A stretch of 64,000 bases of DNA from Candidatus Woesebacteria bacterium GW2011_GWF1_31_35 (GCA_001029755.1 CP011214.1:365767-429766); one strand, 5' to 3'; positions 1-19,362 are shown, numbered from the stretch's first letter. Program-made: numbers and translations. The notes: generated by a model from the sequence alone, not told the origin.

Positions 1-957
1 TAATTCATTTGTTAGTTTATTTTTAAGAATTAAACATGGTCCATCATCGAAGTTGTTCACCTTAAGTATTCCCCAATATGTTTTGATACGTAAACCAGTA
101 AATATATATTTATAAACCTCGGCAAAATCTTCTGCTGGTGATAAACTCCAAACTTGTCCATCTCTTGGTGTATCATTTGGAATATTTCTTAATTGATAAT
201 ATTTGATCCAATCTTCCTCTGTCATTTTACTTTCTATAAAATGTCCAAGTTCGTGGGTTAAAATATCGTCAATCTCATAGATTTTATCTTTATTTAAATA
301 TATTATAAATATTTCTCCATCCTTTATATCACGATAGCAATTAAATGAAGTGTGGCTTTTATATTGACCAATATATCCTCCACCTCTTAGGAAAATAGGA
401 CCCAACTCTGGAACATCCATTTCTCCATAGGGTGTATCAATTTTGTCATTTGGTTTGATAGCTAGGGTATTAACTATAACGATAGCAATATTTTCTAAAA
501 ATCTTTTTGGAAATTTAGATTTATAAATAACTTGGGTAATATTATTTTTAATATCATCAGTTAATGCAACTGAATTGGGGTAATCAAGTTGACCCAAAAG
601 AAATGTATATCCAACATTGTTTACTTCTTCTAAGGGAACACCTTTATTGATACAAGGTTGTAATGTGTCCATGCGATTTTGAGATAAATATGTTATAGAT
701 TTTGGCTGTTTATTAAACTTAGCCATAGTATTGTCAAGGAAGTCAGATTTTACAAAATCAAAATAATATGCCAAAAGAACAAAGATTAAAAAAACTAACA
801 AAGTTAATATTAAAATATATATCTTAGGGAATTTTTCGACAGGTTGAATAAAGTTTATACTAATTGGTTTAGTTAATATTTTTTCTTGATCAGTTGTTAT
901 ATTTTGGGGTATTGGAGGAATATCTTGACTAGCTTGGACTTTATTTAAAAGATCCAT
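1..957 (-). CDS. Putative membrane-anchored zinc metallopeptidase (HEXXH). The start codon is at 957 and the 3' end runs off the window edge.
   Basis: I translated the minus strand by hand: MDLLNKVQASQDIPPIPQN..., then an N-terminal TM helix (KIYILILTLLVFLIFV), then ...DDILTHELGHFIESKMTEEDW (HELGH zinc-binding motif). No stop codon occurs down to position 1. It is absent from the ORF track because it is open at the edge. Confidence 0.5.
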   Translation of the reverse strand, partial: MDLLNKVQASQDIPPIPQNITTDQEKILTKPISINFIQPVEKFPKIYILILTLLVFLIFVLLAYYFDFVKSDFLDNTMAKFNKQPKSITYLSQNRMDTLQPCINKGVPLEEVNNVGYTFLLGQLDYPNSVALTDDIKNNITQVIYKSKFPKRFLENIAIVIVNTLAIKPNDKIDTPYGEMDVPELGPIFLRGGGYIGQYKSHTSFNCYRDIKDGEIFIIYLNKDKIYEIDDILTHELGHFIESKMTEEDWIKYYQLRNIPNDTPRDGQVWSLSPAEDFAEVYKYIFTGLRIKTYWGILKVNNFDDGPCLILKNKLTNEL

Positions 958-1026
958 AATACTAGCTTCTCAAAGTACTGATTAATTGTCAAACTTATTT
1001 AGAAGTAAACCTTTTTCCTATATACC

Positions 1027-1092
1027 CAACGCTTAACTGGCGTCCCTCACGGCGTAGCCGTGATATGCTTGACGACAGTGCGTTGGGGATTG
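1027..1092. repeat. Nested perfect palindromes: outer cccaacgc...gcgttggg, inner cacggcgtagccgtg. This is a candidate hairpin origin or attachment site upstream of the Rep-like gene.
   Basis: The inverted repeats were read directly. Further hairpins follow at 1152-1170 (ggcatccacaaaggatgcc) and 1350-1372 (cacctcgcgatagcgaggtg). Confidence 0.5.
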
Positions 1093-1294
1093 TTTTTTAA
1101 AATAAAAAAGATTAATATCTTTTTGCTACTGGACTGATAGGCATATCAATAAATCATGGTGGCATCCACAAAGGATGCCGACAACAAATTAAAATTATTA
1201 CTTCAAAAAAAGTTGTCTTGTGTTTTGTCTGAAGAAGAATTTATTGAATGTCGGTATTCGCTTATTAAATTAGGTCGAGCTTTAGCTAGATGGC

Positions 1295-2197
1295 ATGAAA
1301 TCTCCTATGGGAGAAAAAATGCCCGAATTTGTTAAAAGTGGTAGTGCTACACCTCGCGATAGCGAGGTGCTATGCTTGACTAATATTAGAACAATTCAAC
1401 AGGATGGTTCTAATAAACCTAGGAAAAATAATTATGGAAAACCTGCCAGAATTTTTTCTTCCCCGCCTCATTTTTGTAAAAAACATCATGTTGTACTTTT
1501 AAAGAAAGACAGAAGTAATACATTTTATTCGGCTCAATCTTTTGGGATCTCATGCAATATGTGGTCTTGCCCTGTGTGTAGAATGTCAAAGACTAAAAAG
1601 TTAAGATGGCTTTTGATTCAAGTTATAAAGTTAAATAATTTAAATCACACGTTTACAATTACACTTGATCCATCAAAAATTCCATCAAAATATTTAACTA
1701 AATACAATAGCTCAGGTCATTATCTCTCATTTTTATTTAATAGATTTATGACATATCTTAGGAGGTTAATGAAAAGACCTATTAAATATGTTTGGGTAAA
1801 AGAATTCCAACAAAAAACTGGTAATGCTCACTTACATCTAATGTTTAATATGTATTTACCTATTAATCCGATTAGAAACTATTGGTCAAAAATTGGTGGT
1901 GGAGTGCAAATGGAAATTGAACAAGTTAGATCTATTGAGGGAAGTGCCGTCTATTTTTCTAAATATGTAACTGATATGGCAAATTCTATTGAAAACTTTA
2001 CTGTTGGAGAAAAACATTATTCAATTTCTCGTTCTTGTATAAAACCTGTTAAAAAATATATTCCCAAAATTGATATTGATGATTTATTTAGGCAACTTCC
2101 CATTGATATATTTTTTCTGGTGTATAATCTTTTATTAAATCCTAGTACTGATGAAGAAATAATACTTGCCCCACATCAGGAAGAATTAGACATATGA
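1295..2197 (+). CDS. HUH-superfamily rolling-circle replication initiator-like protein
   Basis: The three Rep motifs occur in canonical order: motif I HTFTITLD (uuTu), motif II HLHLMFN (HuHuuu), motif III AVYFSKYV (Y-x-x-K). There is an N-terminal Cys cluster (CNMWSCPVC). The gene is preceded by palindromic hairpins. Confidence 0.55.
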   Translation: MKSPMGEKMPEFVKSGSATPRDSEVLCLTNIRTIQQDGSNKPRKNNYGKPARIFSSPPHFCKKHHVVLLKKDRSNTFYSAQSFGISCNMWSCPVCRMSKTKKLRWLLIQVIKLNNLNHTFTITLDPSKIPSKYLTKYNSSGHYLSFLFNRFMTYLRRLMKRPIKYVWVKEFQQKTGNAHLHLMFNMYLPINPIRNYWSKIGGGVQMEIEQVRSIEGSAVYFSKYVTDMANSIENFTVGEKHYSISRSCIKPVKKYIPKIDIDDLFRQLPIDIFFLVYNLLLNPSTDEEIILAPHQEELDI

Positions 2198-3720
2198 AAT
2201 ATATAATTTATTGTCGTAAATCAACAGAAGATGATAGTCGTCAGGTTCAATCACTTGAAACACAAATTACATTACTTGATGAGTTGGCTAAAAGATGTAA
2301 TTTAGATGTTGTGGATAGATTACAGGAATCTAGAAGTGCTAAAAAATCTGATAACCGACCATTGTTTAATTTCCTAATTGAAAGAATTAAAAGTGGGGAA
2401 GTTGAAGGAATTCTTACTGCTCATATTGATAGGCTTAGTAGAAACGGTACAGAGGCTGCAATAATTACAAAACTTCTTGAAGAGAGGAAGTTAAAAGAAA
2501 TTAGAACTCCGTCAGATATTTTTAATTCACCACAAGATATTTTATTTATGGATATCAAATTTGCTTTCTCGTCATATTATTCAAGAGATCTAAGCGTTAA
2601 GGTAAAAGAGGGGATACAAACAAAATTAAAAAAAGGAGAATTTCCCAATATGGCACCTTTAGGATATTTAAATAAAGATAAAAAAATATATCCCAATCCA
2701 GAATTTGCGCCACTAGTTAAGAGAGTTTTTAATTTATATTCGTCTGGAGATTATTCATTAAATGATTTGGTTACTAAATTATATGATGGGGGTTTTAGAT
2801 CTAAAAATGGTTCAAAATTTAGAAAATCTACATATGAAAGGATGTTAAAAAATCCAGTCTATGTTGGTTTAGTAAGATGTAACGGAATAATTTACAAAGG
2901 TATTCATGAACCTATTATTTCAGAAGAGCTGTTTGAATCTTGTCAAAATATTAATAAATTTAAGAGTCGTCCAAGACTAATTAAACATGATTTTCTATAT
3001 AGAGGTTTTGTTAAATGTGCAGTTTGTGGTTGTATGTTTACAACTTCTTTAAAGACAAAACCTAGTCAGAAAAGATATATTTATTATTACTGTACTAACG
3101 GTAAGTTTATTTGTGATCAACACAAAAGTTATTTAAGAGATAATAAAATTAATGATTTAGCTCAATCTATCTTTGATAATATTTCTGAAACATTTGATTC
3201 TGAAATAGCTCAACTTTCACTCGAAGCCTATTATCAAAGCATCAAAGATGAAACGAAGTTTGAAGAACAAAGTAAAACTAATACAGAACAGTTAATTAAG
3301 AAGAATAAAGAAAAACAAAACAAATTACTTGATCTCTTATTAGAAGAGGGTGTTACCCAAGAAACATACGATACAAAACTAGAGTTACTAAAAACAGAAG
3401 AAAGAGAGTTAATTAAGAAACAAAACAATAAAAAACCTACCAACCCCGATGTTACTTTGGAACTCTTAAATAACTTCAAAAGTGAGGCTATTTCGCTTAA
3501 AAATGTGTTTTCTGGGGGTGATGATGAGGTAAAACAGGATTTATTAAAATCGGCACTTTGGAACTTTTCAGTCAAAGATGGGAAAGTGGCGAAAGTAAGG
3601 TATAAAAGATTATATGAAAAGGTCGCAAAAGTGTCAAAAAGTGACGATTTTGCACAATGGCTGGGGGACAGGGATTCGGACCCCGATACCATCCTCCAAA
3701 AAGATGTGTCCTGCCGTTAG
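2194..3720 (+). CDS. Large serine recombinase (resolvase/invertase catalytic domain + recombinase domain + zinc ribbon)
   Basis: The N-terminus IYCRKSTEDDSRQVQSLETQ matches the YxRxSTxxQ catalytic-serine motif of serine recombinases. Downstream are a Cys-rich zinc ribbon CAVCGCMF...YYYCTNGKFICDQH and a C-terminal coiled-coil, and the protein is 508 aa long. The start overlaps the Rep gene by 4 bp. Confidence 0.85.
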   Translation: MKYIIYCRKSTEDDSRQVQSLETQITLLDELAKRCNLDVVDRLQESRSAKKSDNRPLFNFLIERIKSGEVEGILTAHIDRLSRNGTEAAIITKLLEERKLKEIRTPSDIFNSPQDILFMDIKFAFSSYYSRDLSVKVKEGIQTKLKKGEFPNMAPLGYLNKDKKIYPNPEFAPLVKRVFNLYSSGDYSLNDLVTKLYDGGFRSKNGSKFRKSTYERMLKNPVYVGLVRCNGIIYKGIHEPIISEELFESCQNINKFKSRPRLIKHDFLYRGFVKCAVCGCMFTTSLKTKPSQKRYIYYYCTNGKFICDQHKSYLRDNKINDLAQSIFDNISETFDSEIAQLSLEAYYQSIKDETKFEEQSKTNTEQLIKKNKEKQNKLLDLLLEEGVTQETYDTKLELLKTEERELIKKQNNKKPTNPDVTLELLNNFKSEAISLKNVFSGGDDEVKQDLLKSALWNFSVKDGKVAKVRYKRLYEKVAKVSKSDDFAQWLGDRDSDPDTILQKDVSCR

Positions 3721-3912
3721 ACGATCCCCCAATAGAAACAATGCATATTGTATCAAATCTAGACTTTAAATTCTTTGCAGATTCCCTGAATCCAGCCAGT
3801 AACTTTTCTGTTAGTATCTGTACTGTTTCTTACAGTTATTCTTAATACTCCATTATAATTTCCACCTTTATTTTTTCTAAATGAATTTACCTTGTTTTTC
3901 TTAAAGTAGATT

Positions 3913-4452
3913 TTATTTAAATTTTGTATTGGAAATTTTGTTATTCTTGACCAAAATAATGGAAGTTCTTTTGGGGGTCTTTTTGTAGGTTTCATGTATA
4001 TATATTTCAAATTTTATACCACTTGGCTTTATTAAAAGACATTTTTTGAGCCAGAGAAGATATATCCTAATCATCTTGGGATCACTATTACTAAAAATAA
4101 GCTCCTTACTGGGATCATGTACTTTTTGTTTGCTACCCTCAGTCCAATAAAGAACGATTCCAATGATTTTGAGGTGGAAATTATTTAATTTTACAATTTC
4201 CTTACTTGATTGATCAATTATTTGTTTTGTTTTCTCAATTCTTTTTTGTTTTAGAGCTATACTACCAAATTTTCTAGCTTTTGCGTTTTTTAATCTCAAT
4301 CTTTTAACTTGTAGATTTGTGATTTTAATATTTCGTAACTACTCTGATAATGAAGATTTAGAAACTTTTAATTTTTTTAGTATTTCGGAATATGAATATC
4401 CAAGCTTTCTAAACTCTATTGCTTTTTGCCTGTCTATCAATTTAGCTCTCAT
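3913..4452 (-). pseudogene. HTH-containing ORF interrupted by an in-frame TAG. An N-terminal 37-aa HTH piece (4339-4452) reads in frame into ORF 3913-4299.
   Basis: The minus-strand translation is MRAKLIDRQKAIEFRKLGYSYSEILKKLKVSKSSLSE*LRNIKITNLQVKRLRLKNAKARKFGS... The stop is in frame with the downstream 128-aa ORF. Confidence 0.3.
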
Positions 4453-4534
4453 TACTTAATAATAGACCGAAGTGATGACGAATATCAAGCATATTGTGGA
4501 TGATTATTATAATAAGGTATAATACAGTGTTCGT

Positions 4535-4607
4535 GGGCCCGTAGCTCAGTGGTAGAGCGGTTCCCTTTTAAGGAAAAGGTCGATGGTCCGATCCCATCCG
4601 GGCTCAC
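4535..4607 (+). tRNA. tRNA-Lys (anticodon UUU)
   Basis: Cloverleaf read by hand: acceptor gggcccg/cgggctc, D stem gctc/gagc, anticodon loop cTTTTaa, T stem gatgg/ccatc with loop ttcgatc-like. Confidence 0.8.
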
Positions 4608-4630: not shown

Positions 4631-4702
4631 GGCCCCTTCGTCTATCGGTTAGGACACTAGGTTTTCATCCTAGTAAGGGCAGTCCGACTCTGCCAGGGGT
4701 CA
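4631..4702 (+). tRNA. tRNA-Glu (anticodon UUC)
   Basis: Acceptor ggcccct/aggggtc, anticodon stem ctagg/cctag with loop ttTTCat. Confidence 0.8.
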
Positions 4703-4741
4703 CATATTGCATTAATACTCTTTGTAGTATTAAATTAATTA

Positions 4742-5323
4742 ATGACCGTTTCAAACACCGAACCACCTTTGGTTGATGTTAAAGTTACTAATCCTGTTAC
4801 TTATCTTCGTCGTTGGTGGGAAAAAGTAATGGATAAGGAGGGAGTTTATTTTAGCTTTAGAATCCATCCAATTACAGCCTTTTTAATAGCTTTTGGTTTA
4901 ACTGCTGGAATTTTTAGTATTGGAAGATATTCAGTAAATATTCCATTTTTAAAATATGAAGTAGAAGATACAACAAAAACATCTCCAACCTTTGAACCTA
5001 TTTGGAAAGAAACTGCCTTTACAGGAAAACTCCAGTATAGCCCTGTTGGATCTAAATATTTTTTAATAACAACATCATCTGAAGCAATAACCTTAGAAGT
5101 ACCAAATAATTTAGATCTATTTACCCTAATAGGCAAAAGAATCTTCGCGGTAGGGGAATACAATAAGCAAACTAAAATTTTAAAGGTTGCTGATGTAAAA
5201 GATTTAGAAGTTTTATCTAAAACTCCAATTCCAATCCCAACCATAATAGCTACGCCTGCAGCAACTCCTAGTTCTACACCTATCCCGACAGATGTCATAG
5301 ACAATTCACAAACAAACCTATAA
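4742..5323 (+). CDS. Hypothetical membrane-anchored protein with a Pro/Thr-rich C-terminus
   Basis: 193-aa ORF with one TM segment (ITAFLIAFGLTAGIFSI) and a PIPIPTIIATPAATPSSTPIPT tail. Confidence 0.4.
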   Translation: MTVSNTEPPLVDVKVTNPVTYLRRWWEKVMDKEGVYFSFRIHPITAFLIAFGLTAGIFSIGRYSVNIPFLKYEVEDTTKTSPTFEPIWKETAFTGKLQYSPVGSKYFLITTSSEAITLEVPNNLDLFTLIGKRIFAVGEYNKQTKILKVADVKDLEVLSKTPIPIPTIIATPAATPSSTPIPTDVIDNSQTNL

Positions 5324-5334
5324 AATTTTCTGAT

Positions 5335-5979
5335 ATGGAAATTTTGTCAGGGATTGTAGGTTTTATTCTACATATTGATACCCATCTGGGGCAGATAATT
5401 AATGATTATGGAACTTTATCCTACTTAATATTATTTGCGATAATATTTGCAGAAACAGGGTTTGTTTTTACTCCATTTTTACCTGGAGATTCACTTCTTT
5501 TTGCGGCTGGAGCTTTTGCAGCCCTGGGATCATTTAATATACTTTTAGTTTTAGGAGTTTTGTGGTTGGCTGCATTCTTAGGAGATACAGTAAATTATTG
5601 GATAGGCCATTTTTTTGGTCAAGCATTGATTGATAATCCTAAAATTCCACTTAAAAAGGAACATATTGAAAAAACTCAAAAATTCTATGATAAATACGGT
5701 GGGAAAACCATATTTTTAGCTAGATTTGTGCCTATTGTTAGAACATTTGCACCATTTGTAGCAGGTGTTGGTAAAATGCATTACGGTAACTTTATTAAAT
5801 ATAATTTGATGGGTGGTTTGGTTTGGGTATCTGGTTTCACACTTTTAGGATACTTTTTTGGAAATATAGAATTTGTTAAGAAAAATTTTTCTTTAGTAGT
5901 TCTTGTTATAATTCTATTATCAGTAGTACCAATTATATATGAATTTACAAAAGCCAAACTCTCCAAAAATAAAAAATAA
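5335..5979 (+). CDS. DedA/SNARE-associated family membrane protein
   Basis: Characteristic FAETGFVFTPFLPGDSLLFAAGAFAA segment, multi-TM, ~214 aa. Confidence 0.75.
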   Translation: MEILSGIVGFILHIDTHLGQIINDYGTLSYLILFAIIFAETGFVFTPFLPGDSLLFAAGAFAALGSFNILLVLGVLWLAAFLGDTVNYWIGHFFGQALIDNPKIPLKKEHIEKTQKFYDKYGGKTIFLARFVPIVRTFAPFVAGVGKMHYGNFIKYNLMGGLVWVSGFTLLGYFFGNIEFVKKNFSLVVLVIILLSVVPIIYEFTKAKLSKNKK

Positions 5980-6997
5980 TTTTATTTATTTATCTGTTTT
6001 AATATTTGCATTTTTAACATTTGTTTTTATTAATAGGCAAAGTTTGTTTATAAAGTTTGGTCCTAATTTAATTAATAACTATTTAAGGTCTCAAGATATT
6101 TTAGATACTGAAAATAAGATAAAAGATAGAATACTTATCTCTGATAGTGATATTTATATCGCAAGTGGATATATGTATGCAAACGGAATAGATCCAAGAA
6201 AATACAATTTTCAACATCCTCCATTTATTAAATATTTGTTTGGCTTATCTTCAAAATACTTTAATTTACCACTTCTACCTAATATCTTTTTTGCTGGTTT
6301 TTTGATTTTGGGAGTTTATCTTTTGGGTATCAATGTTTTTAAAAACCCAACAATTGGATTTTTAGCTTCAATCTTATTAATGTTTGACCCGGTTTTTAAA
6401 GAAGTAACAATATATGCATTACTTGATTTAGGACAAATTGTATTTATATTATGGTTTCTTATAATAAGTCTTTTCTATCCAAAACATTATCTTATTGAAG
6501 GAATTCTATTAGGTCTTGCTTTAGCCTCTAAATTTTGGACCCCAGTCTTAATATTTTTAGGGATTTTATATATTTATAAACTTTTGGTTATGAAAATAAA
6601 TATTAAAAATGAACTCATTATTTTATTTATTGCATTTTTAACATTTTGCTTAACATATGTAGTTAGTTTTATTAAATCTGACGGACTTTTTAACATCTTT
6701 TTCTGGCAGGCAAAACTATTAAAGTTTATGCTAGAACATAACGTTGCTACCAAGTGGGGTAGTACTTTAAAAATGTTTTTTGGAGGATATTTACTTTGGC
6801 CAATTATATTTTTTGTAAATTTATATTTATTATTCAAAACTAAGATTAAAGAGGTTAAGTTTTTAATTTATTTATTACCAATACTTTATTTATTTTTGCT
6901 AACTTTTCAACTTTCCTTTACTCGTTATTTCATTTTGATCTTACCTTTTCTATACCTAAGTTTAGGAAAATTCGTAGTTTCTAAATTAAAAAAATGA
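5939..6997 (+). CDS. Polytopic membrane protein, possibly a GT-C-type glycosyltransferase
   Basis: 352 aa, about 9 TM helices, very hydrophobic. The assignment is weak because no strict motif was recognised. Confidence 0.35.
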   Translation: MNLQKPNSPKIKNNFIYLSVLIFAFLTFVFINRQSLFIKFGPNLINNYLRSQDILDTENKIKDRILISDSDIYIASGYMYANGIDPRKYNFQHPPFIKYLFGLSSKYFNLPLLPNIFFAGFLILGVYLLGINVFKNPTIGFLASILLMFDPVFKEVTIYALLDLGQIVFILWFLIISLFYPKHYLIEGILLGLALASKFWTPVLIFLGILYIYKLLVMKINIKNELIILFIAFLTFCLTYVVSFIKSDGLFNIFFWQAKLLKFMLEHNVATKWGSTLKMFFGGYLLWPIIFFVNLYLLFKTKIKEVKFLIYLLPILYLFLLTFQLSFTRYFILILPFLYLSLGKFVVSKLKK

Positions 6998-7023
6998 TTG
7001 TGTTATAGTTAATATATAAATAT

Positions 7024-7446
7024 ATGAAAAGGTTTACTTTCATTTTTACATACATCATTTTAATGGCAATTCCTGCTTCAATAGTTCTCTTTTTTGTTTA
7101 TGACCTGATCAATATTGAAGCCCTTATTGTTGTAATATTAACCTCACTTTTTATAGGTGGAATCTTAGAAATCTGGGCAGTTAAACAAGGAAGGGGAGAT
7201 AAATTTTATATTTGGGAATATAGTAATAAAACTACTCTCGGGAAAAAAATACTGGGTGTGGCTGTTGAAGATTTAATTCTTTTTTTAATCCTTACTCCAA
7301 TTTTTTGCATAGCCATGTGGGAGTTCGTAAAAAAATATGTTGTCACAGGCAATATCCCTCTGAAAATAGTTTTACCTACGGGGTTGATTTTTATATTTAT
7401 TACATATTTTTTTGTCTATCGAATTACTAATAAAAATAAAAAATAA
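7024..7446 (+). CDS. Small membrane protein
   Basis: 140 aa, 4 predicted TM segments. Confidence 0.4.
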   Translation: MKRFTFIFTYIILMAIPASIVLFFVYDLINIEALIVVILTSLFIGGILEIWAVKQGRGDKFYIWEYSNKTTLGKKILGVAVEDLILFLILTPIFCIAMWEFVKKYVVTGNIPLKIVLPTGLIFIFITYFFVYRITNKNKK

Positions 7447-7522
7447 CACAAGAGTTTTAAATTGATTTTTACTATTTCATTTTGATCTTACCTTTTCTAT
7501 ACTTAAGTTTATCTAATTTATT

Positions 7523-9268
7523 ATGCGAAAAATATTCCTAACAGCTTTATTTTTAATAGTCTTTATTTTTATCCCGTTCCCAACTTATGCTAAAGATTAT
7601 TCAATAGAATCTGTTAATTTTGAGGTCAATATTAATAAGGATGGTTCTGCAAATATCATTGAGACGAGAAAATATAATTTTTCAGGAGACTTTACTTGGG
7701 CCGATGAATGGATTCCCCTAAAAGGTTATAACATAACAGATATAGAAATTTTTGATGATAATTTAATTCCACTTCAATTTGAAAAGAGTTTAACTTCAGA
7801 TAAACTTTATCTTAAGTGGTATTACAAAGCTTCAGATGAGATAAAAACATTTATTTTAAAATATAAAATCGACAATGCTATCACAGTTCATTCTGATATT
7901 TCAGAATTCTATTGGCAATTAATTGGAGATGAATGGACAAAAGGAACAGGAAGTGTAACAGCCAAAGTTATCCTTCCATATGAGGCTAATGATAATAATA
8001 TTTGGGCTTTTGGACATGGACCATTAAATGGAAAAATATATATAAAAAGTACAAAAGAAGTTGATTTTTCAGTCAATAATTTACCTGCCAAAAAGTTTTT
8101 TGAGGTAAGAGTGCTTTTTCCAAGAACTGACTTTATTGATGCGAAGATTGGCTCTTCAAATCTAAAATTGATTCTAAAAGAAGAAAAAGCGTTTGCTAAC
8201 AAAACTAGAAATCAAAGTTTATTAATATTTGGAATTTTATTTATATTTTCTACCTTTATGTTTTATAGAATTATTGTTTGGTCTATAAGGTGGTATAAAA
8301 TTGGAAAAGATGAGAAATTGCCTCAAGTAAACTTGGCAGGTACATTACACGAACCACCAACTGATCTTGCTCCAATTTATGTAGAAACACTTCTTAAAGG
8401 AAGCCCTACGGGAAAATCTATTGTTTCGACAATATTAGAATTAGTAAGGAGGAAGGTGTTAAGAATAGAGTTTATCAAAAATGGTAAGAAAACTTTTTTA
8501 AGTACAAAAGACCAATATCTATTAGTATTTAATAAAGAAGATAATAAATTATCAGAAATTGAAAAGGATTTGATAGATTTTCTATTTGTTTCAAGAAGTA
8601 AGAAATTAGATTTTGATGAGATTAAATTGTTAAATAAGAGTCATCCTACAAAAACATCTATCTTTTGGTCGAAATGGCAAAAAAATGCAAAAGATGGCCT
8701 TAATGATTTAGGATTTTATGAAGATGAAAGTTTAAAATTTCAAGCTAAAGCAGTTGTTGAAACAGTTTTAGTTGGAATTGCTACTTTTATAAGTATATAT
8801 TTAGCTTCAGTTATCTTAATTTTACCTATACTTTTAATATATTTATTTTTTATGATTTTGATTTCCATTTATATGCCTAAGAAAAGCGCTTGGGGAGGAA
8901 CTGAAATGGCTGGTTGGATTGCTTTTAGAAAATGGCTTAAAGATTATTCAGTTACAAAAAATTATCCAATTGATTCTGTAATACTTTGGGAAAAATATTT
9001 AGTTTATGGAACTGTTTTAGGAATATCAGTTAAGGCTTTATCACAACTTCCAATAAAATTTTCAAAAAGCTTTGAAGGATCTGGAATGTATTTTGTTGGG
9101 AATACAGGAAACGGGGATTTTACAACTTCTTTTGCAGGACTTTCGAACGGGTTTAATTCACTTTCTGGTAGCTTTTCAGGTTTTGGAGCACAAGGGGCTG
9201 GCTCATCAGGAGGATTTTCTGGCGGTGGGGGTGGTGGTGGAGGTGGTGGTGGAGGTGGCGCAGGGTAA
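7523..9268 (+). CDS. DUF2207-like membrane protein with a poly-Gly C-terminal tail
   Basis: Signal peptide, large N-terminal extracytoplasmic domain, central TM helices, and a C-terminal GFGAQGAGSSGGFSGGGGGGGGGGGGGAG tail. This architecture is typical of the DUF2207 family. Confidence 0.5.
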   Translation: MRKIFLTALFLIVFIFIPFPTYAKDYSIESVNFEVNINKDGSANIIETRKYNFSGDFTWADEWIPLKGYNITDIEIFDDNLIPLQFEKSLTSDKLYLKWYYKASDEIKTFILKYKIDNAITVHSDISEFYWQLIGDEWTKGTGSVTAKVILPYEANDNNIWAFGHGPLNGKIYIKSTKEVDFSVNNLPAKKFFEVRVLFPRTDFIDAKIGSSNLKLILKEEKAFANKTRNQSLLIFGILFIFSTFMFYRIIVWSIRWYKIGKDEKLPQVNLAGTLHEPPTDLAPIYVETLLKGSPTGKSIVSTILELVRRKVLRIEFIKNGKKTFLSTKDQYLLVFNKEDNKLSEIEKDLIDFLFVSRSKKLDFDEIKLLNKSHPTKTSIFWSKWQKNAKDGLNDLGFYEDESLKFQAKAVVETVLVGIATFISIYLASVILILPILLIYLFFMILISIYMPKKSAWGGTEMAGWIAFRKWLKDYSVTKNYPIDSVILWEKYLVYGTVLGISVKALSQLPIKFSKSFEGSGMYFVGNTGNGDFTTSFAGLSNGFNSLSGSFSGFGAQGAGSSGGFSGGGGGGGGGGGGGAG

Positions 9269-9279
9269 TATTCACCTTA

Positions 9280-9308
9280 TTGACCGACACTTTTATTATG
9301 CTATAATA
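9280..9308 (+). promoter_or_regulatory. Sigma70-like promoter upstream of the rRNA operon (TTGACC-17 nt-TATAAT)
   Basis: ttgacc at 9280-9285 and tataat at 9303-9308, with a 17-nt spacer, about 330 nt upstream of the 16S 5' end. Confidence 0.5.
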
Positions 9309-10100
9309 GCCAGTACAAGTTAAGGGTTGACTCGCCTTCAATTGGTTGAAAACTCCACTAAGAACCTTTACTTTTAAAGAAATTTAATTACTAATAAATA
9401 AGTCTTAAATAAGAAAGAGCCGTAAGTTAATTTTTATTTTAGTTTGCTCCTGTTCGTGTTTGTGGCTTATTTATTATTAATTATTTTGTTCCTTAGTACT
9501 TTGAAAACTAAATGTGACAAGTAATTTATCTGAAAATTTATTTTTTCGTTAGTATGTAAAATAATTTTCAGGTTCAAGTTGTGACTAGGAGTGTGTAAAA
9601 GATGTTTCCGATATCGTCAAAAATTCGGAACCGTCACTTTTTGAGGATTTGATCCTGGTCCAGGATGAACGCTAGCGGTGTGCTTTAAGCATGCAAGTGG
9701 GACGAGTTGTAGCAATACAACTAGTCGCGAACGGCTGAGTATAAAATAGGAATCTACCCAATGGTGTGGAATACCTTATCGAAAGATGAGCTAATACCAC
9801 ATGACCTCGCAAGAGAAAAGGACTTAACTGTCCGCCGATGGATGAGCCTATTTCCCATCAGTTTGTTGGTAGGGTAATGGCCTACCAAGACTATGACGGG
9901 TAGGGGATTTGAGAGGATGACCCCCCAGAACAGGACTGAGACACGGCCTGTACACCTACGGGTGGCAGCAACTGGGAATCGTGCGCAATGGACGAAAGTC
10001 TGACGCCGCGACACCGCGTGAAGGATGAAGGCCTTTTGGTCGTAAACTTCTTTTGCCATATGGGTGACCATATGGAGAATAAGCACCTGCTAACTCTGTG

Positions 10101-11003
10101 GATTTTTAAAAATTGGTGCAGAGTACTGATAGTAATATCGGTAGAGAAAACTTCGCTATATGCTGGAACATTTTGTAAACAGATAGATACTAACATTATC
10201 AAAGGATGATGACAGTGAAAATTTTATCTGAAACCCTAAAAAACAAGCGGTTTGTATGTGGGTTACAAAACTATCAGCAGGTAACCTTTTTGAGAAATCA
10301 AAATGGGCACCTCAGAGACTACACGCGAAGCTCCGTTAGATATATAATTATCTAATCGGATGATGATATAGTCCACGCTATTTATGTCAGATATAAATCA
10401 AATAATAGTTGGATCGATATTGGGAGATGGAAGTTTATCACCTTTAACTAAAAGGAATAAATATTCAACTCTAGATATTTCTCAACATGAGAGTAAATTG
10501 CCTTATTTAAGGTGGTTATATGATCAACTAACAAAGAAATTTGAATTAAATCCGATATATCAGAAAAAAGGTTTTGAGAATCAATATAGGTTTAGAAGTA
10601 AGCCAAATAAGACTCTTGGAATTTTTAGGTCTAAATTTTATGACAATTTAACAGGTTGTAAAATTATTCCAAAAGATATAGGAGATTTACTAAAAAACCC
10701 AATTTCTTTGGCAGTTTGGTATATGGATGACGGAACTTTAGATAAAAGATATAAGTATCATTTAAATTCTTCAATCGCAACAAATTGTTTCTCATTTGAG
10801 GAATGCAGTTTGTTGAGTGAGGTTTTAAATGATAATTTTAAACTTAAAACGTCTGTTAATAAGACTACAATGAGGGGTAAGATTTACCCCAGAATTTATT
10901 TTAAGTCTGAATGTATGAATGATTTTATTAAGATCATCAAGCCTTATATTAATTCAGTTTTTAATTACAAAATTGGAATTGAATAATCTAAACTATAGAG
11001 TAG
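10101..11003 (+). mobile_element. Group I intron 1 in 16S (inserted before CCAGCAGCCGCGGTAATAC), carrying a LAGLIDADG ORF. Boundaries are accurate to a few nt.
   Basis: Exon continuity ...aactctgtg|...|ccagcagccgcgg. Core elements: P-like ctatatgctggaa, Q actatcagcagg, R cctcagagactacacg (10308), S gatgatatagtcc (10361). Confidence 0.8.
10384..10986 (+). CDS. LAGLIDADG homing endonuclease (encoded in intron 1)
   Basis: IVGSILGDGSL motif, plus a second LAGLIDADG-like block AVWYMDDGTL. Confidence 0.8.
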   Translation: MSDINQIIVGSILGDGSLSPLTKRNKYSTLDISQHESKLPYLRWLYDQLTKKFELNPIYQKKGFENQYRFRSKPNKTLGIFRSKFYDNLTGCKIIPKDIGDLLKNPISLAVWYMDDGTLDKRYKYHLNSSIATNCFSFEECSLLSEVLNDNFKLKTSVNKTTMRGKIYPRIYFKSECMNDFIKIIKPYINSVFNYKIGIE

Positions 11004-11276
11004 CCAGCAGCCGCGGTAATACAGAGGGTGCAAGCGTTATCCGGATTTATTGGGCGTAGAGCGTTTCGTAGGCGGTTTGGTAAGTTAGACTTCAAAGACC
11101 ACGGCTCAACCGGGGGAAGGGGTCTAATACTGCCAGACTTGAGGGTTTTAGGGGCAATCGGAACTGTTGGTGTAGGGGTGAAATCCGTTGATATCAACAG
11201 GAACGTCAAGGGCGTAGGCAGATTGCTGGGAAACTTCTGACGCTGAGGAACGAAAGCTAGGGGAGCGAAAGGGATG

Positions 11277-12337
11277 GGGTTTATAAACTCTAGTTCCTCC
11301 GTTAAGTAATTAACGGTTTAAAAATTCGACTATATGCTGGAATAACTGTGTATCTTAGACTAGTATTGACTTTGGTTTTAATTCGGATAATACTGAATTA
11401 ATGCCCAAATTAAATACTGAAAATGTTTTAAGTGCAGTCAATCAGCAGGGAAGATCTCGAAAGAGAAACCCTCAGAGACTATATGTCGAATATCCTAGTA
11501 AGAATGTAATAAGTAATATAGAAGCAACTTTATTGGGTATCTTATACACTGATGGTTGTTTATCTAGAAAGAGTAAGAATGCTTGGAGATTTTATCTAAG
11601 TAATACTTCTTACGAGATTATACAAATATTTAAAAATTGTATGATTAAACTTTTTGGATTAAACACTAAAAGAATAAGAATATCTAAATATGTTGTTAAT
11701 GGTAAGCCTTTTTATAAAGCAATTGTAGATAGTGCATCATCTGGAGAATTTTTAAATTCAAAATATGGTACATTTCGAACTCTTGCTTATAAAAGTGTAG
11801 ATGGTAAAGTAATTTATCCTTCTACAAAATTACCGTTTAACAAAAATTCTAATCGCAAAATAATTTGCAAGTTTTTAAAAACTGCATTTAGTTGTGATGG
11901 AGGTATAAATTTATATGTAGCAAAATCAAAGTTTGGTTACAAATTTTTGATTAGAAATGCATATTTAGCTTGCAAACATCCACAATTACAGATTGATTAT
12001 CATAAACTTTTAAAAGTTCTTGGTATTAAATCTAAAATTTTTGAAAAAGATGGAAAAATACTTATTCAAGGAAGAAATGAATTGAATAAATTTAGTAAAA
12101 AAGTTGGTTTTCTAAAAAGAGTCAAGATAACACAAAATTCTAAATTTTGGCAAGGTGCTGAAAAAGAAAAAGTGTTAAATCTTGCATTAAATTCTTACAA
12201 TAATCCGAGAAAGATTATAAATCTTTCAAAGTTTAAAGGATAAAGATATAGTCCGACCTCATAAGCGATTATGAGACTACGTGTTGAATCGTAGTAAACA
12301 AACTATTTATAGTTTGTTATAACAAATTTGTAGAGAC
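11277..12337 (+). mobile_element. Group I intron 2 in 16S (around the 785 region), carrying a LAGLIDADG ORF
   Basis: Exon ...gggagcgaaagggat|...|agacccctgtagtcctagccgtaaac. Elements: ctatatgctggaa (11335), Q aatcagcagggaag, R cctcagagactatatg, S aagatatagtccgacc (12243). Confidence 0.8.
11401..12243 (+). CDS. LAGLIDADG homing endonuclease (intron 2). The N-terminal region reads through the intron core Q/R elements.
   Basis: LLGILYTDGCLSRKS motif, 280 aa. Confidence 0.65.
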   Translation: MPKLNTENVLSAVNQQGRSRKRNPQRLYVEYPSKNVISNIEATLLGILYTDGCLSRKSKNAWRFYLSNTSYEIIQIFKNCMIKLFGLNTKRIRISKYVVNGKPFYKAIVDSASSGEFLNSKYGTFRTLAYKSVDGKVIYPSTKLPFNKNSNRKIICKFLKTAFSCDGGINLYVAKSKFGYKFLIRNAYLACKHPQLQIDYHKLLKVLGIKSKIFEKDGKILIQGRNELNKFSKKVGFLKRVKITQNSKFWQGAEKEKVLNLALNSYNNPRKIINLSKFKG

Positions 12338-12629
12338 CCCTGTAGTCCTAGCCGTAAACTTTGCCTGCTAGCGATCCGACTTTGGTCGGGTTGCGTAAGC
12401 TAACGCGTTAAGCGGGCCGCCTGGGGAGTACGAACGCAAGTTTAAAACTCAAAGGAATTGACGGGAAGGCGCACAACCAGTGGAGCATGTGGTTTAATTC
12501 GAAACGAAACGAAGAACCTTACCCAGTCTTGACATATTACCGTTTTAGATTGCCAGAAATGGCGATCGATCCTTAAGTAATTTTGGATGGTATTACAGGT
12601 GTTGCATGGCCGTCGTCAGCTCGTGTCGT

Positions 12630-12886
12630 AGGTTAACACTTTGCGACCCTTCGAAGCAATTCGGAGTGCGAAATCTGGCTCATATCGGTGGAACTTCTTA
12701 TTTTTAATAAGAACAATACCGAGGGAAGTCGACTTAAATTTTAAGTTTGACCCCGTAACGACTGATTTTGGTATTTTTAAATATCAAATGATATACAAGA
12801 TAATACGCTTGTATAACACGCCAGCTCCCGATTTAATCGGGATGAAGGTATAGTCTAATTACAGTTACCTTTTAAAGTAATTGGAG
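12630..12886 (+). mobile_element. ORF-less group I intron 3 in 16S (~257 nt), subfamily B (variant R/S elements)
   Basis: Exon gctcgtgtcgt|...|aggtgttcccttcagtggggtaacgagcgcaaccc. Elements: catatcggtggaac, aataccgagggaag, ccccgtaacgactga, gatgaaggtatagtcta. Confidence 0.7.
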
Positions 12887-13276
12887 GTGTTCCCTTCAGT
12901 GGGGTAACGAGCGCAACCCCTGCCCTGAGTTAAATAATCTCAGGGGACTTCCCTCATTTATTGCGGGAGGAAGTGGGGACGACGTCAGGTCAGCATGGCC
13001 CTTATGACTGGGGCAACACACATACTACAATGGAGCCGACAATGGGTTGCCAAGCCGCAAGGCGGAGCTAATCCCATCAAACGGCTTCTCAGTTGGGATT
13101 GAGGGCTGCAACTCGCCCTCATGAACATGGAATTGGTAGTAATCGCGGGTCAGCTATACCGCGGTGAATACGTTCTCGCCTTTTGTACACACCGCCCGTC
13201 AAGGCAGTAAAGTTAAAGGTACCCGAACTTCGATTTTGTCGGAGGAAGGTAAATTTAGCGATAAGGCTTAAGTCGT

Positions 13277-13971
13277 TGGTTAAGTTAACGTTGCGACTTT
13301 AGAGAGTGATCTCTAAAAAAAATCTTGCTGTATCGGTGAAACCTAAAGTAGTAAAATACAATGGTAATACCGAGGGAACCCCAAATTCTTTGGGGACTCC
13401 GTAGAGACTACACGCGAGCACTATGATAACAAAATCGTACTTGTTAGGAATGTTGCACGATGCAACTGAAAGAAAAAATACTTATCGAATTGCGACTAAG
13501 AATTTTAATTTTGCAAAAGTTATCCGAGAGGGTATCATAAAATTAAATTCTAAGGTTTGGATTTACAAAGAAGGAAAGAATCGCAATCTTTGGATTGTAG
13601 AATTTTCTAAATCACTTTTAAAAGAAGTGAATGTTAAATCAAAACAAAATAAAATCGATTACATTCGAGGCTATTTTGACGCAGAAGGGGGTATTTCTCA
13701 AAGTTCTAAAGTTAGATTTTATATTTATTTTTGCCAGAAAGACAAAATTGATCTGGAGGAAGTAAAAAATTATTTAATAGAATTGGGAGTCAGTTGTGGA
13801 GTAACACATAATCCAAGTAAAAAGGTTGATCCTAATTATTGGAGATTTTTTATACGATCGAAATCGTACAAATATTTTGCAAAAATAATTAGTTCAGATC
13901 ATCCGGAAAAGATTAAGTTATTAGAGATGAAGATATAGTCCATACCACACGAAAGTCGTGGAATTTATATG
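13277..13971 (+). mobile_element. Group I intron 4 near the 16S 3' end, carrying a LAGLIDADG ORF
   Basis: Exon ...ggcttaagtcgt|...|aacaaggtatccc...ggatcacctcctt. Elements: atcggtgaaac, ggtaataccgagggaa, R ccgtagagactacacg, S agatatagtccatacc. Confidence 0.8.
13423..13938 (+). CDS. LAGLIDADG homing endonuclease (intron 4)
   Basis: Motif YIRGYFDAEGG; 171 aa, the single-motif type. Confidence 0.8.
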   Translation: MITKSYLLGMLHDATERKNTYRIATKNFNFAKVIREGIIKLNSKVWIYKEGKNRNLWIVEFSKSLLKEVNVKSKQNKIDYIRGYFDAEGGISQSSKVRFYIYFCQKDKIDLEEVKNYLIELGVSCGVTHNPSKKVDPNYWRFFIRSKSYKYFAKIISSDHPEKIKLLEMKI

Positions 13972-14153
13972 AACAAGGTATCCCTACTGGAAGGTGGGGA
14001 TGGATCACCTCCTTTCTAAGGAGTTGAAATACACACCCCTTTTTAAGATGCATGTTAAAGGATAGAAAAAACGGCATCACAAATCATATTCCTAGCCACA
14101 ACTTGAATAGTTATATTTTAATTATTAGTAAGTCACACAAATTAGAAATTTTT

Positions 14154-14180
14154 ACCGCTTTTTTATAAAGCGGTTTTTTT
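14154..14180 (+). terminator. Terminator-like hairpin plus T-run inside the 16S-tRNAIle spacer (accgctttttt ataa agcggttttttt)
   Basis: Read directly. It is probably a processing or antiterminated structure, since it lies inside the operon. Confidence 0.3.
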
Positions 14181-14411
14181 ATGTCTTAATGTATTTTAGG
14201 GTTCTATTCGTTACTATTTATTTGTTAATATGACACATGGTGCTGAACATAAATTTGATTCGATAGTTATAATTTAATCCTATTCAATTGAATAAATACT
14301 AGTAACATATTAGTAATATAATTAGCAATCTAGGTATATTTTCTTTATTAGAAATTTTATGGTTAATAGTTAACTGTGAACTCTTTTTATGATAAACTAG
14401 CGATTAGTTTT

Positions 14412-14483
14412 GGGCGCATGGCTCAGTGGTAGAGCGCATTCCTGATAAGAATGAAGTCCATGGTTCGATCCCATGTGCGCCCA
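14412..14483 (+). tRNA. tRNA-Ile (anticodon GAU) in the rRNA spacer
   Basis: Acceptor gggcgca/tgcgccc, anticodon stem cattc/gaatg with loop cTGATAa. Confidence 0.85.
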
Positions 14484-14640
14484 CTTAAATTTAATACTAT
14501 TGACGCGAGAGTAGTGTATCTAGTATAATGCTCACCAGTCTTTAAGAGTTCGGAATACTTAATGAAAAAACTTATTAAATTTTACAAAACCAAAGCGCAT
14601 TTTTGCGTGGGGTAGATAATAATAGTTTTTACTTTTAGTT

Positions 14641-14670
14641 AACCGACTTTTAAAAATAGTCGGTTTTTTT
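14641..14670 (+). terminator. Second hairpin plus T-run between tRNA-Ile and tRNA-Ala (aaccgacttttaaaaatagtcggtttttttt)
   Basis: Read directly. Confidence 0.3.
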
Positions 14671-14718
14671 TGACATATTAAAGTTTTGCCCAGCAAAATA
14701 AAGTGCAAGAATCAATCT

Positions 14719-14794
14719 GGGCCGTTGGCTCAGTTGGTAGAGCGCTTCATTTGCAATGAAGAGGTCGGGAGTTCGAATCTCCCACGGTCCACCA
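14719..14794 (+). tRNA. tRNA-Ala (anticodon UGC) with a G3:U70 pair and an encoded CCA
   Basis: Acceptor gggccgt/acggtcc with G3.U70, anticodon stem cttca/tgaag with loop tTTGCaa, T-arm gggagttcgaatctccc, 3' ACCA. Confidence 0.85.
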
Positions 14795-15472
14795 ATTGGG
14801 ATTTGAAAGTAGAAAAGTAACTAAAATACTTTTTTATCTTTACATCCTAATTGTTAAAATGATGTACTTTGACAACTGAAGGATAAGAAAAGTTTTGCAA
14901 GACCATTTGTCCGGTTTTGCAAAGATTAGAAAATAAGGCCGTTAATTTATACACCACGATTGTGGTGTTGTAAGGTTTTTACATTAACGCAGATAGTGGA
15001 TGCCTTGGTCGTATCTTCCGAAGAAGGACGTACATAGCCACGATAGTCGACGGGGAACTGCTACGAAGTTTTGATCCGTCGGTGTCCGAATGGAGCAATC
15101 CTTCCTGATTTATATCAGGAAACTTGTAAGCCAAATTATCCAATTTATTGGATGAATAACTTACAATGAGGGAACCATCTGAACTGAAACATCTAAGTAA
15201 GATGAGGAAAAGAAATCAAAGAGATTGCGTCAGTAGCGGCGAGCGAAAGCGCAAGAGCCTAAACCTTGTTCATGTTTACATGAGTGAGGGGTTGTGGGAG
15301 CCCAATGTGGGATTAGAATTTAATAGTAGAACAATCTGGAATGGTTGACCATAGAGAGTGAAAGTCTCGTAAACGAAATTAAATTTTACCCTAGGGAATT
15401 CCCAAGTAACATGAGATACACATCTTGTGTGAATCCGGGGGAACCATCCTCCAAGGCTAAATAAAGATACGA

Positions 15473-15511
<39 letters not shown>

Positions 15512-16105
15512 AAGGGTGAGACACCCAATGAAATAGAAACTGAAACTATCTGCGGACAAACCGACAGAGCACTTCGCAAGAGGTGTGATGTCGTGCCTAT
15601 TGAAGAATGAGCCTGCGAGTTCTCGCTTACTGTGTGTTTAAAACGGTTTTACCGTTTAGGCATAGCGAAAGCAAGTGTTAATAGCGCGTATAAACACAGT
15701 AACCGGGAGACCCGAAACCGAGTGATCTAACCTTGAGCAGGGTGAGTCTTAAAGAAATTTAAGAGGAGGCCCGAACCCGTTATCGTTGTAATGATATGGG
15801 ATGACTTGTGGTTAGTGGCAAAATACCAACCGAACTCGGAGATAGCTGGTTCTCCCCGAAAGGTCTATAGGGACCGCGCCATGCAAAAAGATTATCAGGG
15901 GTAAAGCTACTGGATGGGTTAGCAAGGGTAACCGAGTTAACTCAACCAAACTCAGAATACTGATAAAATAAAGCATGGTAGACAGTCATATCGGGCTAAG
16001 CTGATATGGCTAAAGGGAAACATCCCAGATTTTCAGCTAAGGCCTCTAAATCTACATTAAGTTTAAAAGGAAGTTTTTTCTCTCAGACAGCCAGGAGGTT
16101 GGCTC

Positions 16106-16143
<38 letters not shown>

Positions 16144-17240: not shown

Positions 17241-17254
17241 ACTGTTCTAAGGTA

Positions 17255-17958: not shown

Positions 17959-18079
17959 GAGCGAAGTTCCTTGCCAGGTAAGTTCTGGCCCGCACGAATG
18001 GCGTCACGAGTTAGCAACTGTCTTGAGGTTTCACTCGGCGAAATTGCGTTGGCTGTGAAGACGCGGCCTAATCCCACTT

Positions 18080-18111
<32 letters not shown>

Positions 18112-19350: not shown

Positions 19351-19362
19351 CGTGAGACAGTT

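Follow-up and report, generated by a model that had tools for sequence, protein, structure and literature searches.

What brings a rolling-circle replication initiator and a large serine recombinase (LSR) together beside tRNA genes in a genome of the Candidate Phyla Radiation (CPR)? We addressed this question for a 64,000-nt stretch of DNA from Candidatus Woesebacteria bacterium GW2011_GWF1_31_35 (GCA_001029755.1 CP011214.1:365767-429766; host genome GC content ~30%), which is referred to as the window in the following. An earlier note on this DNA had claimed an integrated rolling-circle element with an HUH-type Rep protein and an LSR at positions 1000–4530, next to tRNA-Lys and tRNA-Glu. The pairing of the two genes in an integrated element was borne out, both by domain matches (PF23343 for Rep and the LSR domains) and by the attachment sites attL, attR and attB, which could be resolved against empty sites in relatives. 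The claimed span was not: the left end lies 3.07 kb beyond the window and the right end at 3660–3663. That is, window positions 1–3663 probably represent the right 3.66 kb of an integrative rolling-circle plasmid-like element, inserted at the 3' terminal bases of a tRNA-Gln(UUG) gene of Woesebacteria (CPR, Microgenomates). The full element comprises 6,727 bp (5643–12369 in the coordinates of locus L001, see below), of which only this right part falls inside the window.

Relatives were collected by exact-protein look-ups of 13 Rep homologues and by scans of GTDB species genomes and JGI metagenome contigs; the resulting loci are given as L numbers. L001 is the window's own contig (JGI Ga0209518_1000001, 755 kb), identical over the window, and its coordinates equal those of the window plus 8706. 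Empty sites were sought via homologues of a 193-aa protein encoded in the right flank, and two loci were found to be unoccupied. L029 is collinear on both sides with L002, the locus of the closest relative, with flanks that are 80–97% identical, and is without 4.25 kb present there. In L028, tRNA-Gln, tRNA-Lys and tRNA-Glu are arranged as in the window and the flanking genes are 76–86% identical, with neither an element nor a pseudogene present. When attB of L029 (...ACTTATAGTTT-GCTG-GGGGACAGGG) was aligned with attL (...ACTTATAGTTT-GCTG-ACCTTATGGTACTACAT) and attR (...GCAACTTG-GCTG-GGGGACAGGG) of L002, the four nucleotides GCTG were common to all three sites and define the crossover core; the same core was obtained for attL and attR of L001 together with attB of L028. 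It occupies window positions 3660–3663 and corresponds to the discriminator base and first acceptor bases of a tRNA. A common core of attP and attB as short as these 4 nt is in keeping with serine-integrase sites.

This tRNA is neither of the two that had been named. The integration target, which provides the B' side, is a tRNA-Gln(UUG) gene at 3658–3731 on the minus strand (ARAGORN; Rfam, 49.2 bits) that the earlier note had overlooked; tRNA-Lys (4535–4607) and tRNA-Glu (4631–4703) are real genes according to ARAGORN and Rfam, but both lie outside the element. The attB site, ...GCTG-GGGGACAGGG, is the 3' terminus of tRNA-Gln. In the occupied site the tRNA gene is intact and the element provides its encoded CCA end, while the empty sites L028 and L029 are without an encoded CCA. 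An antisense tRNA abuts or overlaps the 3' end of the LSR gene at every locus with a complete LSR (~17 loci: L002, L005, L010/L011, L013–L022, L024–L026). In most of them it is tRNA-Gln (UUG or CUG); L013 and L015 have tRNA-Ser, L016 and L020 tRNA-Glu, and L021 tRNA-Asp at this place.

On the left side, attL of this element reads B arm-GCTG-ACCTTATGGTAC... (GCTG-ACCTTATGGTACTAC; in the L001 reading GCTG-ACCTTATGGTACTACATAGCC), with its core at L001 5639 and the first P' base at L001 5643. Given the offset of 8706 between the two coordinate systems, attL lies 3.07 kb left of window position 1. The P' arm starting there is identical to that of L002 over 17 nt and 90% identical over 40 nt. On the right side, attR reads ...GCACAATG-GCTG-tRNA. 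Its element-side half-site, the P arm (3624–3659), is located inside the recombinase coding sequence and was delimited by comparison of attR, attB and attL, with its exact length assumed from typical serine-integrase sites. The attL site could also be placed in L005, L010, L022 and L023, yielding elements of 3.7–4.9 kb; reconstructed lengths within the family range from 3.7 to 6.7 kb. Direct repeats of the tRNA region of at least 13 nt were absent from the 5 kb upstream of Rep in all 15 loci searched (chance matches of up to 12 nt only). This is expected for a serine recombinase, and therefore the junctions had to be read from empty sites. From the half-sites, ...TTTTGCACAATGGCTGACCTTATGGTACTAC... 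is predicted as the attP junction of the circle (...GACGATTTTGCACAATGGCTGACCTTATGGTACTACATAGCC... as a synthetic junction) and ...CTTTCATAATTTGCGTGCTGGGGGACAGGGATTCGG... as the junction of the empty attB. Beside attL of L002, a 188-aa open reading frame (ORF) looks like a further insertion of ~550 bp relative to L029 (L002 2090–2106 and 2658–2674 versus L029 6831–6847), flanked by a duplicated stretch of ~17 nt that shows up as overlapping BLAST segments.

The replication gene of the element (1295–2197, plus strand) encodes a 300-aa HUH rolling-circle replication initiator with two tyrosines in motif III. As had been read from the ORF, the motifs FTITLD (I), HLHLMF (II) and YFSKY (III) stand in canonical order, and an alignment of 13 family members revealed T123/L124/P126, H179-L180-H181, Y220 and Y224, the second tyrosine four residues on, to be invariant. 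An upstream zinc-finger-like motif, CxxWxCPxC, is invariant in the same alignment. Searches with profile models, which the earlier note had suggested for both proteins, identified Pfam PF23343 (REP_ORF2-G2P; E = 6e-11, 43 bits, cut-off 27.8) as well as PHROG 3419 (5.9e-13) and 3584, annotated as 'rolling circle replication initiation'; Rep_1 stayed under its cut-off (E = 0.015). A profile of the Rep family recovered 1378 cluster representatives at E <= 1e-10. No solved structure matching Rep by sequence was found. With the AlphaFold2 model (pLDDT 69.5), the top Foldseek matches were weak, none reaching E <= 0.001: pMV158 RepB, SIRV1 ORF119, circovirus Rep and Helitron, all of which are HUH proteins. 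The closest annotated relatives, at <31% identity, are Microviridae VP4-like proteins and proteins of archaeal rolling-circle plasmids of 1.4–2 kb. Ratios of non-synonymous to synonymous substitution rates (dN/dS) of 0.16–0.34 point to purifying selection. On JGI Ga0209518_1000001 the protein is labelled hypothetical protein, Candidatus Woesebacteria RIFOXYC1_FULL_31_51.

The LSR gene (2194–3720, plus strand) overlaps the Rep ORF by the four bases ATGA (2194–2197) and encodes 508 aa in the integrated form, both as previously described. The zinc ribbon noted at that time was confirmed, with Resolvase (PF00239), Recombinase (PF07508) and Zn_ribbon_recom (PF13408) all above cut-off, and PHROG 95 (integrase) matched at 1.6e-82. 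Residues 156–398, in the C-terminal half, align to the A118 integrase structures 4kis and 6dnw, the catalytic motif YCRKS is kept in homologues, and dN/dS values of 0.10–0.23 again indicate purifying selection. The protein resembles the large serine integrases of phages (A118, Bxb1, phiC31, TP901-1) in its order of resolvase catalytic domain, recombinase domain and zinc ribbon with coiled coil, and these enzymes likewise use a very short att core. Known large serine integrases mostly target protein-coding genes or intergenic sites, and are not known to carry attP within the integrase ORF.

Here, the last 63 nt of the recombinase ORF are antisense to the overlapping tRNA-Gln, and its last 19 codons (3664–3720) consist entirely of tRNA antisense sequence, which yields the integrated-form tail WLGDRDS[DN]P... 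Because the ORF crosses attP, the last 15–19 codons are exchanged on integration. Read across the reconstructed attP, the ORF continues into the P' arm as W-L-T-[LMFV]-W-[YD]-[YDN]-[IV]-[AGR]-T (WLTLWYYIATNY...) and encodes 505 aa instead of 508. In this frame, pairwise differences between the P' arms of six elements are distributed over the three codon positions as 43/8/47, and the arms of L001 and L002 differ by three consecutive synonymous changes. Such a pattern is the signature of a translated sequence, and the frame in question exists only in the circular form. Archaeal integrases of the SSV1 type provide a parallel, since their attP is embedded in the recombinase gene and integration alters the ORF. 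They are, however, tyrosine recombinases whose gene is split on integration, whereas in the present case the ORF remains whole and just its C-terminal tail is exchanged.

It is tempting, though a long shot, to read the tail swap as a built-in directionality switch, in which the circular-form enzyme would be competent for integration and the integrated-form enzyme competent for excision or inactive, with or without a 59-aa partner protein (see below). The family would then be a self-contained, CPR-specific replicon-plus-integrase cassette and, if so, usable as a first native vector for Microgenomates.

Two further observations concern the recombinase gene. It is uncalled in the source JGI record (gene lists of L001 and L027), and a collection of 5.8 billion proteins holds no full-length identical LSR, only a 303-aa fragment; the gene was probably discarded in annotation owing to its overlap with the tRNA-Gln call. 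Annotation-based surveys will therefore miss such integrases. In addition, a perfect antisense sigma-70 consensus (TTGACA, 17 nt, TATAAT; 12/12) is present at 3637–3609 on the minus strand, within the recombinase 3' end and P arm and just downstream of tRNA-Gln. Its -35 hexamer is not kept in L002 or L005, and the consensus could be due to chance or could act as an antisense or read-out promoter.

Where might replication of such an element start? The stable palindromes that had been reported for this region are real: folded as DNA, the interval 1000–1400 reaches -67.6 kcal/mol, versus -36.5 +/- 4.2 for shuffled sequences (z = -7.4; 0/100 shuffles as good), with hairpins at 1026–1087, 1152–1170 and 1350–1369. 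The suggestion that these palindromes could serve as a double-strand origin can be kept for the hairpin at 1350–1369, which together with the invariant motif downstream of it is the best candidate, but for the one at 1026–1087 a single-strand origin or a promoter is the better fit.

The candidate for the double-strand origin, hairpin B (1350–1369, plus strand), has an 8-bp stem and a GATA loop and lies within the 5' coding region of Rep. Covariation supports the structure: across 10 members 96% of the alignment cells are paired, six of the eight pairs show changes on both sides, and none of 500 shuffles reaches this. Directly downstream follows the invariant DNA motif CTATG-CTTGACTAATA-TTAGAACAATTCAACAG (1370–1402, plus strand), as judged by conservation across loci. 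Its 11-mer CTTGACTAATA is found with at most two mismatches in 16/17 loci, at Rep identities down to ~33%. Within CTTGACTAATA, the synonymous third positions are invariant in the Leu and Thr codons, and that of Asn is changed in one of ten aligned members; the invariant third positions imply a constraint on the DNA and not on the protein alone. From this conservation, hairpin B is predicted to be the Rep recognition hairpin of a double-strand origin and the CTTGACTAATA region its nick region, with hairpin B + CTATGCTTGACTAATATT (also written hairpin B + CTATGCTTGACTAATATTAGAAC) as the predicted Rep substrate. The CTTGAC region is reminiscent of the nick sites in pC194 and phiX174 (CTTG|ATA), a resemblance which we take as a lead only. 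These replicons (pC194/pUB110, phiX174) share the HUH Rep motifs I–III, the origin in or next to the rep gene and, in the case of the phiX174 A protein, the two tyrosines. Their sequence relation to the Rep described here is remote, and they are non-integrative.

The upstream structure, hairpin A (1021–1094, plus strand), is a three-tier GC-rich palindrome with stems 1026–1033/1080–1087, 1037–1045/1071–1079 and 1047–1053/1057–1063. It is 93–98% identical in L002 and L005, while Rep is only 55–82% identical. Copies were compared with a covariance model (model R1), which replaced a MAFFT alignment in which distant copies were misaligned. The model recovered the hairpin in eight elements, including L002, L005, L010, L021, L022 and L023, and in neither of the empty-site loci; it is orientation-specific (99 bits on the plus strand versus 27 on the minus strand), with 94% of the cells paired and compensatory changes in four pairs. 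No match to hairpin A was found in Rfam. The asymmetric internal loop of its 3' arm always leaves TGnTAnnnT unpaired, which resembles an extended -10 element (TGATATGCT here; TACAAT, TAAAAT or GATAAT in others; CGGTATAAT in L010). Judged by these features, hairpin A has roughly an even chance of being a single-strand origin, that is, a single-stranded DNA promoter for priming of the complementary strand. A separate structured single-strand origin primed by RNA polymerase is also known from replicons of the pC194/pUB110 and phiX174 kind, and RNA polymerase likewise primes the single-strand origin of pT181-type plasmids (PMC5714925).

Two other roles of hairpin A were considered and discarded. 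An intrinsic terminator would require a T-run, which is present only in L001 and L005, and here no plus-strand gene precedes the hairpin. The left end of a 2.7-kb element was suggested by the fact that the homology among L001, L002 and L005 starts there; L029 demonstrates that the insertion in L002 begins 590 nt further left, and the same P' arm is found at L001 5643.

Between the two hairpins begins a conserved small ORF of 59 aa (1156–1335, plus strand), homologues of which are encoded directly upstream of Rep. At least 13 family members encode such a protein (53–60 aa) with the motif LSxxExxExxxSLxxLGxAxxR[WFY]. AlphaFold2 predicts a two-helix hairpin (pLDDT 79; a single-sequence model, and a helical hairpin is too generic for a fold search), and no significant Pfam match was obtained (E <= 0.01). 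The product is a candidate recombination directionality factor or replication regulator.

An exact 10-mer, TATGCTTGAC, occurs twice, at 1063–1072 in the internal loop of hairpin A and at 1371–1380 in the predicted nick region after hairpin B. The copy in hairpin A is kept only in the three closest elements, with one mismatch in L005. The duplicate might serve Rep as a secondary site or for termination, or might coincide by chance with the -10-like motif. In principle, the two copies could also be the ori and ter ends of a rolling-circle transposon of the IS91/Helitron type that is moved by its HUH protein. IS91 uses CTTG/GTTC targets, and the 10-mer after both hairpins contains CTTG. Such a transposon is nevertheless very unlikely. 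The junctions correspond to simple serine-recombinase insertions at the ends of tRNA genes, with a core of 4 nt; the stretch delimited by the two 10-mers includes neither cargo nor LSR; hairpin A retains the second 10-mer in the three closest elements only; and Rep does not belong to the IS91 transposase family in Pfam.

Gene identities, junctions, target, conserved cis elements and selection on the genes are shown, and from these we infer how excision, replication and the origins may work. The LSR, possibly with the small-ORF product as directionality factor, would recombine attL with attR and release a circle. In the circle, attP would lie inside the 3' end of the LSR gene, and the ORF would end in the conserved alternative tail WLTLWYYIATNY... 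of the 505-aa form. Rep would bind hairpin B and nick the plus strand in or next to CTTGACTAATA (CTTGAC region) inside its own gene, starting rolling-circle replication in which synthesis displaces the plus strand. The displaced strand could then be made duplex from hairpin A, with the unpaired TGnTAnnnT as single-stranded DNA promoter for the primer RNA. Finally, with GCTG at the tRNA 3' end as target, the LSR would reinsert the circle, and the tRNA would remain undisrupted and gain an encoded CCA.

Is the element still mobile? Several points weigh against an integrative plasmid of this kind. No free circular form of any Rep-bearing member was found in the Rep-based scans of IMG/VR and JGI metagenome contigs. 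Each of the 23 contigs read for this species contains the element, in an unchanged context throughout, so that it appears to be fixed in this population. The elements of L001 and L002, which occupy the same tRNA, are 78.6% identical at the nucleotide level, versus 71–79% for the flanking host genes, a divergence compatible with long vertical residence. This genome is without an isogenic empty site; since its left flank is unlike that of L028, its attL rests on homology to attL of L002. An exact DNA search with the left flank gave 0 matches among JGI metagenome contigs, a collection that does not hold the source contig and is thus silent on empty sites. The dyad symmetry of the P and P' arms is weak. 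The cargo looks cellular (Na/Ca exchanger, DUF218-like protein), and host DNA caught between the sites could account for part of the 6.7 kb. Last, a plus-strand ORF starts 24–84 nt downstream of hairpin A in every member, so that the hairpin may be an ordinary promoter or operator.

The invariable context in the 23 contigs, the missing circular form and the parallel divergence of element and host would all fit a resident remnant that is no longer mobile, that is, an old integration inherited vertically, with Rep and LSR kept for a host-beneficial or selfish non-mobile role; the tRNA-Gln site is, moreover, occupied in L001, L002 and L005. We nevertheless consider a remnant unlikely. Both genes are intact and under selection (dN/dS 0.10–0.34), sister species have empty sites, the cargo differs from element to element, and relatives target four tRNA species. 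Rep and LSR give discordant relatedness, with L001 near L002 by Rep and L002 near L005 by LSR, which implies module exchange between co-resident elements. Moreover, the P' arm keeps a coding signature that makes sense for the circle alone, and contigs break at the attL core.

These breaks were seen in three Logan contigs (L005, L006 and L011, each 1–30; three samples, two elements), whose first base lies exactly 30 nt ahead of the P' arm, namely 26 nt of B arm followed by GCTG. This length equals k-1 if the Logan assembler used k = 31, as we presume. The starts suggest that the assembly graph branches there into occupied sites and unoccupied, or differently occupied, ones; since the right ends of these contigs are without a matching break, we treat the starts at attL as a hint only.

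Support for a mobile, integrative plasmid also comes from public assemblies that hold recombinases with a circular-type tail contiguous with a P'-like arm, that is, P-core-P' junctions. The 4.2-kb contig L031 (Logan SRR11128413_2013, 1–4244) has an intact attP and ends that overlap exactly over 24 nt, and is probably circular. It carries the gene of a related recombinase, at 45% identity, as well as a small-ORF homologue, lacks Rep, and has a P' arm that matches that of L010 at 17/18 nt. Its cargo consists of a defence-type reverse transcriptase (best PADLOC matches RT and DRT UG17) and a 156-aa membrane protein. In L032 (JGI Ga0064068_100973, 5161–16541) and L033, two elements appear to be arrayed in tandem at a single tRNA. 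In the apparent array of L032, at tRNA-Ser, the first unit has an attL-like site, a PF23343 Rep and a recombinase with its tail running into a P'-like arm; the second has a Rep of another family (Phage_CRI) and a 30%-identical recombinase abutting the tRNA. L033 contains a 28-nt repeat of the P-core-P' junction.

What kind of element is it, then? The functionally closest known systems are integrative and conjugative elements of actinomycetes (AICEs) such as pSAM2. They are similarly small (~9–18 kb), integrate at tRNA genes and replicate by the rolling-circle mode after excision with an HUH Rep, RepSA (PMC3218068, PMC2440964), and in Mycobacterium some of them integrate at tRNA-Leu by means of serine recombinases (PMC3218068). 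For conjugation, however, AICEs encode an FtsK-like Tra protein, and since no Tra protein is present here, the element is not an AICE. They further differ in Rep family (RepSA versus PF23343), in phylum (another one versus CPR) and in being larger than the 3.7–6.7 kb found here, and the element described here is set apart from them by a crossover at the last 4 nt of the tRNA, the lack of a long direct repeat and an attP within the recombinase ORF.

Could the element instead be an integrative mobilizable element (IME), its HUH protein being chiefly a relaxase that nicks a transfer origin for passage from cell to cell, as Rep-like relaxases do in IMEs and integrative and conjugative elements of Firmicutes, rather than a vegetative initiator? 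HUH Rep proteins act in both replication and conjugative mobilization (PMC5714925), pairs of a Rep-like relaxase and a serine recombinase are known from IMEs (PMC5704250), and an origin of transfer and a double-strand origin look the same in the present data. Domain searches, though, revealed no FtsK-like Tra, coupling protein or type IV secretion system in any of the elements. The closest annotated relatives of Rep are initiators of microviruses and small archaeal rolling-circle plasmids, and the conserved structured hairpin A resembles a single-strand origin. Taken with these points, an IME appears distinctly improbable.

The earlier note had left the choice between a plasmid and a phage-like element. 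An integrated single-stranded DNA prophage of the inovirus, plectrovirus or microvirus type could be suspected, since the Pfam family is named for Rep proteins of inoviruses and plectroviruses and Rep has weak phage matches to Microviridae VP4-like proteins. The Ralstonia filamentous phages phiRSM1 and phiRSM3 are a precedent, being rolling-circle replicons for which a serine recombinase carries out integration and excision at the tRNA-Ser 3' end (PMC4471427). Their recombinase is of the small resolvase/invertase type, though, and they have a 13-bp core, an attP between genes and M13-like structural genes (PMC4471427), whereas the present element combines a large serine recombinase with a 4-nt core and is without virion genes. 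Neither a morphogenesis ATPase (pI/Zot) nor a coat protein or microvirus capsid was found among the cargo proteins with Pfam and PHROGs; the cargo, which is variable and cellular in type, has no PHROG match at all, and a scan of IMG/VR with the Rep alignment revealed no relatives. A prophage is hardly credible on these grounds. By the same three tests (virion genes, PHROG matches in the cargo, IMG/VR relatives), the element looks plasmid-like, not phage-like.

In kind, this is an ordinary integrative rolling-circle plasmid; the family itself is previously undescribed and so far occurs mainly in genomes labelled Microgenomates. No description of such plasmid-like or integrative elements was found in the literature on Patescibacteria, CPR and Microgenomates. 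The common right-hand module of the family consists of hairpin A, small ORF, Rep and LSR, with an extra ORF between hairpin A and the small ORF in L002, L010 and L020–L022, while the cargo between attL and the module varies and is different in every element. Informative host names are mostly those of Microgenomates-group CPR (Woese-, Gottesman-, Ames-, Shapiro-, Levyi- and Dojkabacteria). Other labels occur in a few records, for example Ca. Sulfotelmatobacter and 'uncultured Gammaproteobacteria'; in one locus with the latter label (L017), the DNA of element and flank is 86% identical to the Levyibacteriota locus L018.

CPR bacteria (Patescibacteria) are ultra-small with tiny genomes, are mostly without genetic tools, and few mobile elements are known from them. 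A compact family of 3.7–6.7 kb, with a replication module, an integration module and att sites definable to the base, offers possible reagents for CPR genetics or integrase engineering, namely attP and attB sequences, an integrase of ~505 aa and a candidate replicon. The family likewise contributes further examples of integration by serine recombinases at tRNA genes, described as rare in a 2011 survey (PMC3218068).

Part of the cargo of the element falls at the left edge of the window. Since attL lies 3.07 kb beyond that edge, the minus-strand gene at 1–957 is a cargo gene; the window contains the 5' 319 codons of its 368-aa protein, and the whole ORF (L001 8557–9663) is located between attL and attR. 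The protein has an N-terminal membrane anchor and an HELGH motif, and gave no match in Pfam, PHROG or PADLOC. Four further cargo genes left of the window encode a Na/Ca exchanger, a DUF218-like protein and two small proteins of no assigned family. Nothing in the cargo resembles a virion or known defence protein (Pfam, PHROGs, PADLOC). With an ion exchanger here and a defence-type reverse transcriptase in a related element, such elements may move genes between CPR lineages.

To the right of the element, 3732–4530 holds a decayed host gene, followed by tRNA-Lys and tRNA-Glu. The small opposite-strand ORFs at 3759–4460 (minus strand), one of them with an in-frame TAG, had been counted as part of the element. 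They are present as described, but represent two halves, frameshifted or stop-interrupted, of a decayed host gene for a 230-aa helix-turn-helix protein. This gene is intact in L002 (7352–8044) and L029 and absent from L028, and the ORFs were accordingly rejected as element genes. Compared with L002 and L029, the block formed by this gene, tRNA-Lys and tRNA-Glu has the opposite orientation.

Elsewhere in the window, the 16S rRNA gene (9675–13314) was matched in three separated pieces with large AT-rich insertions, and the 23S rRNA region (14974–20000) contains two group I introns, at 16944–17199 and 19424–19694. Interrupted rRNA genes of this sort are common in CPR genomes.

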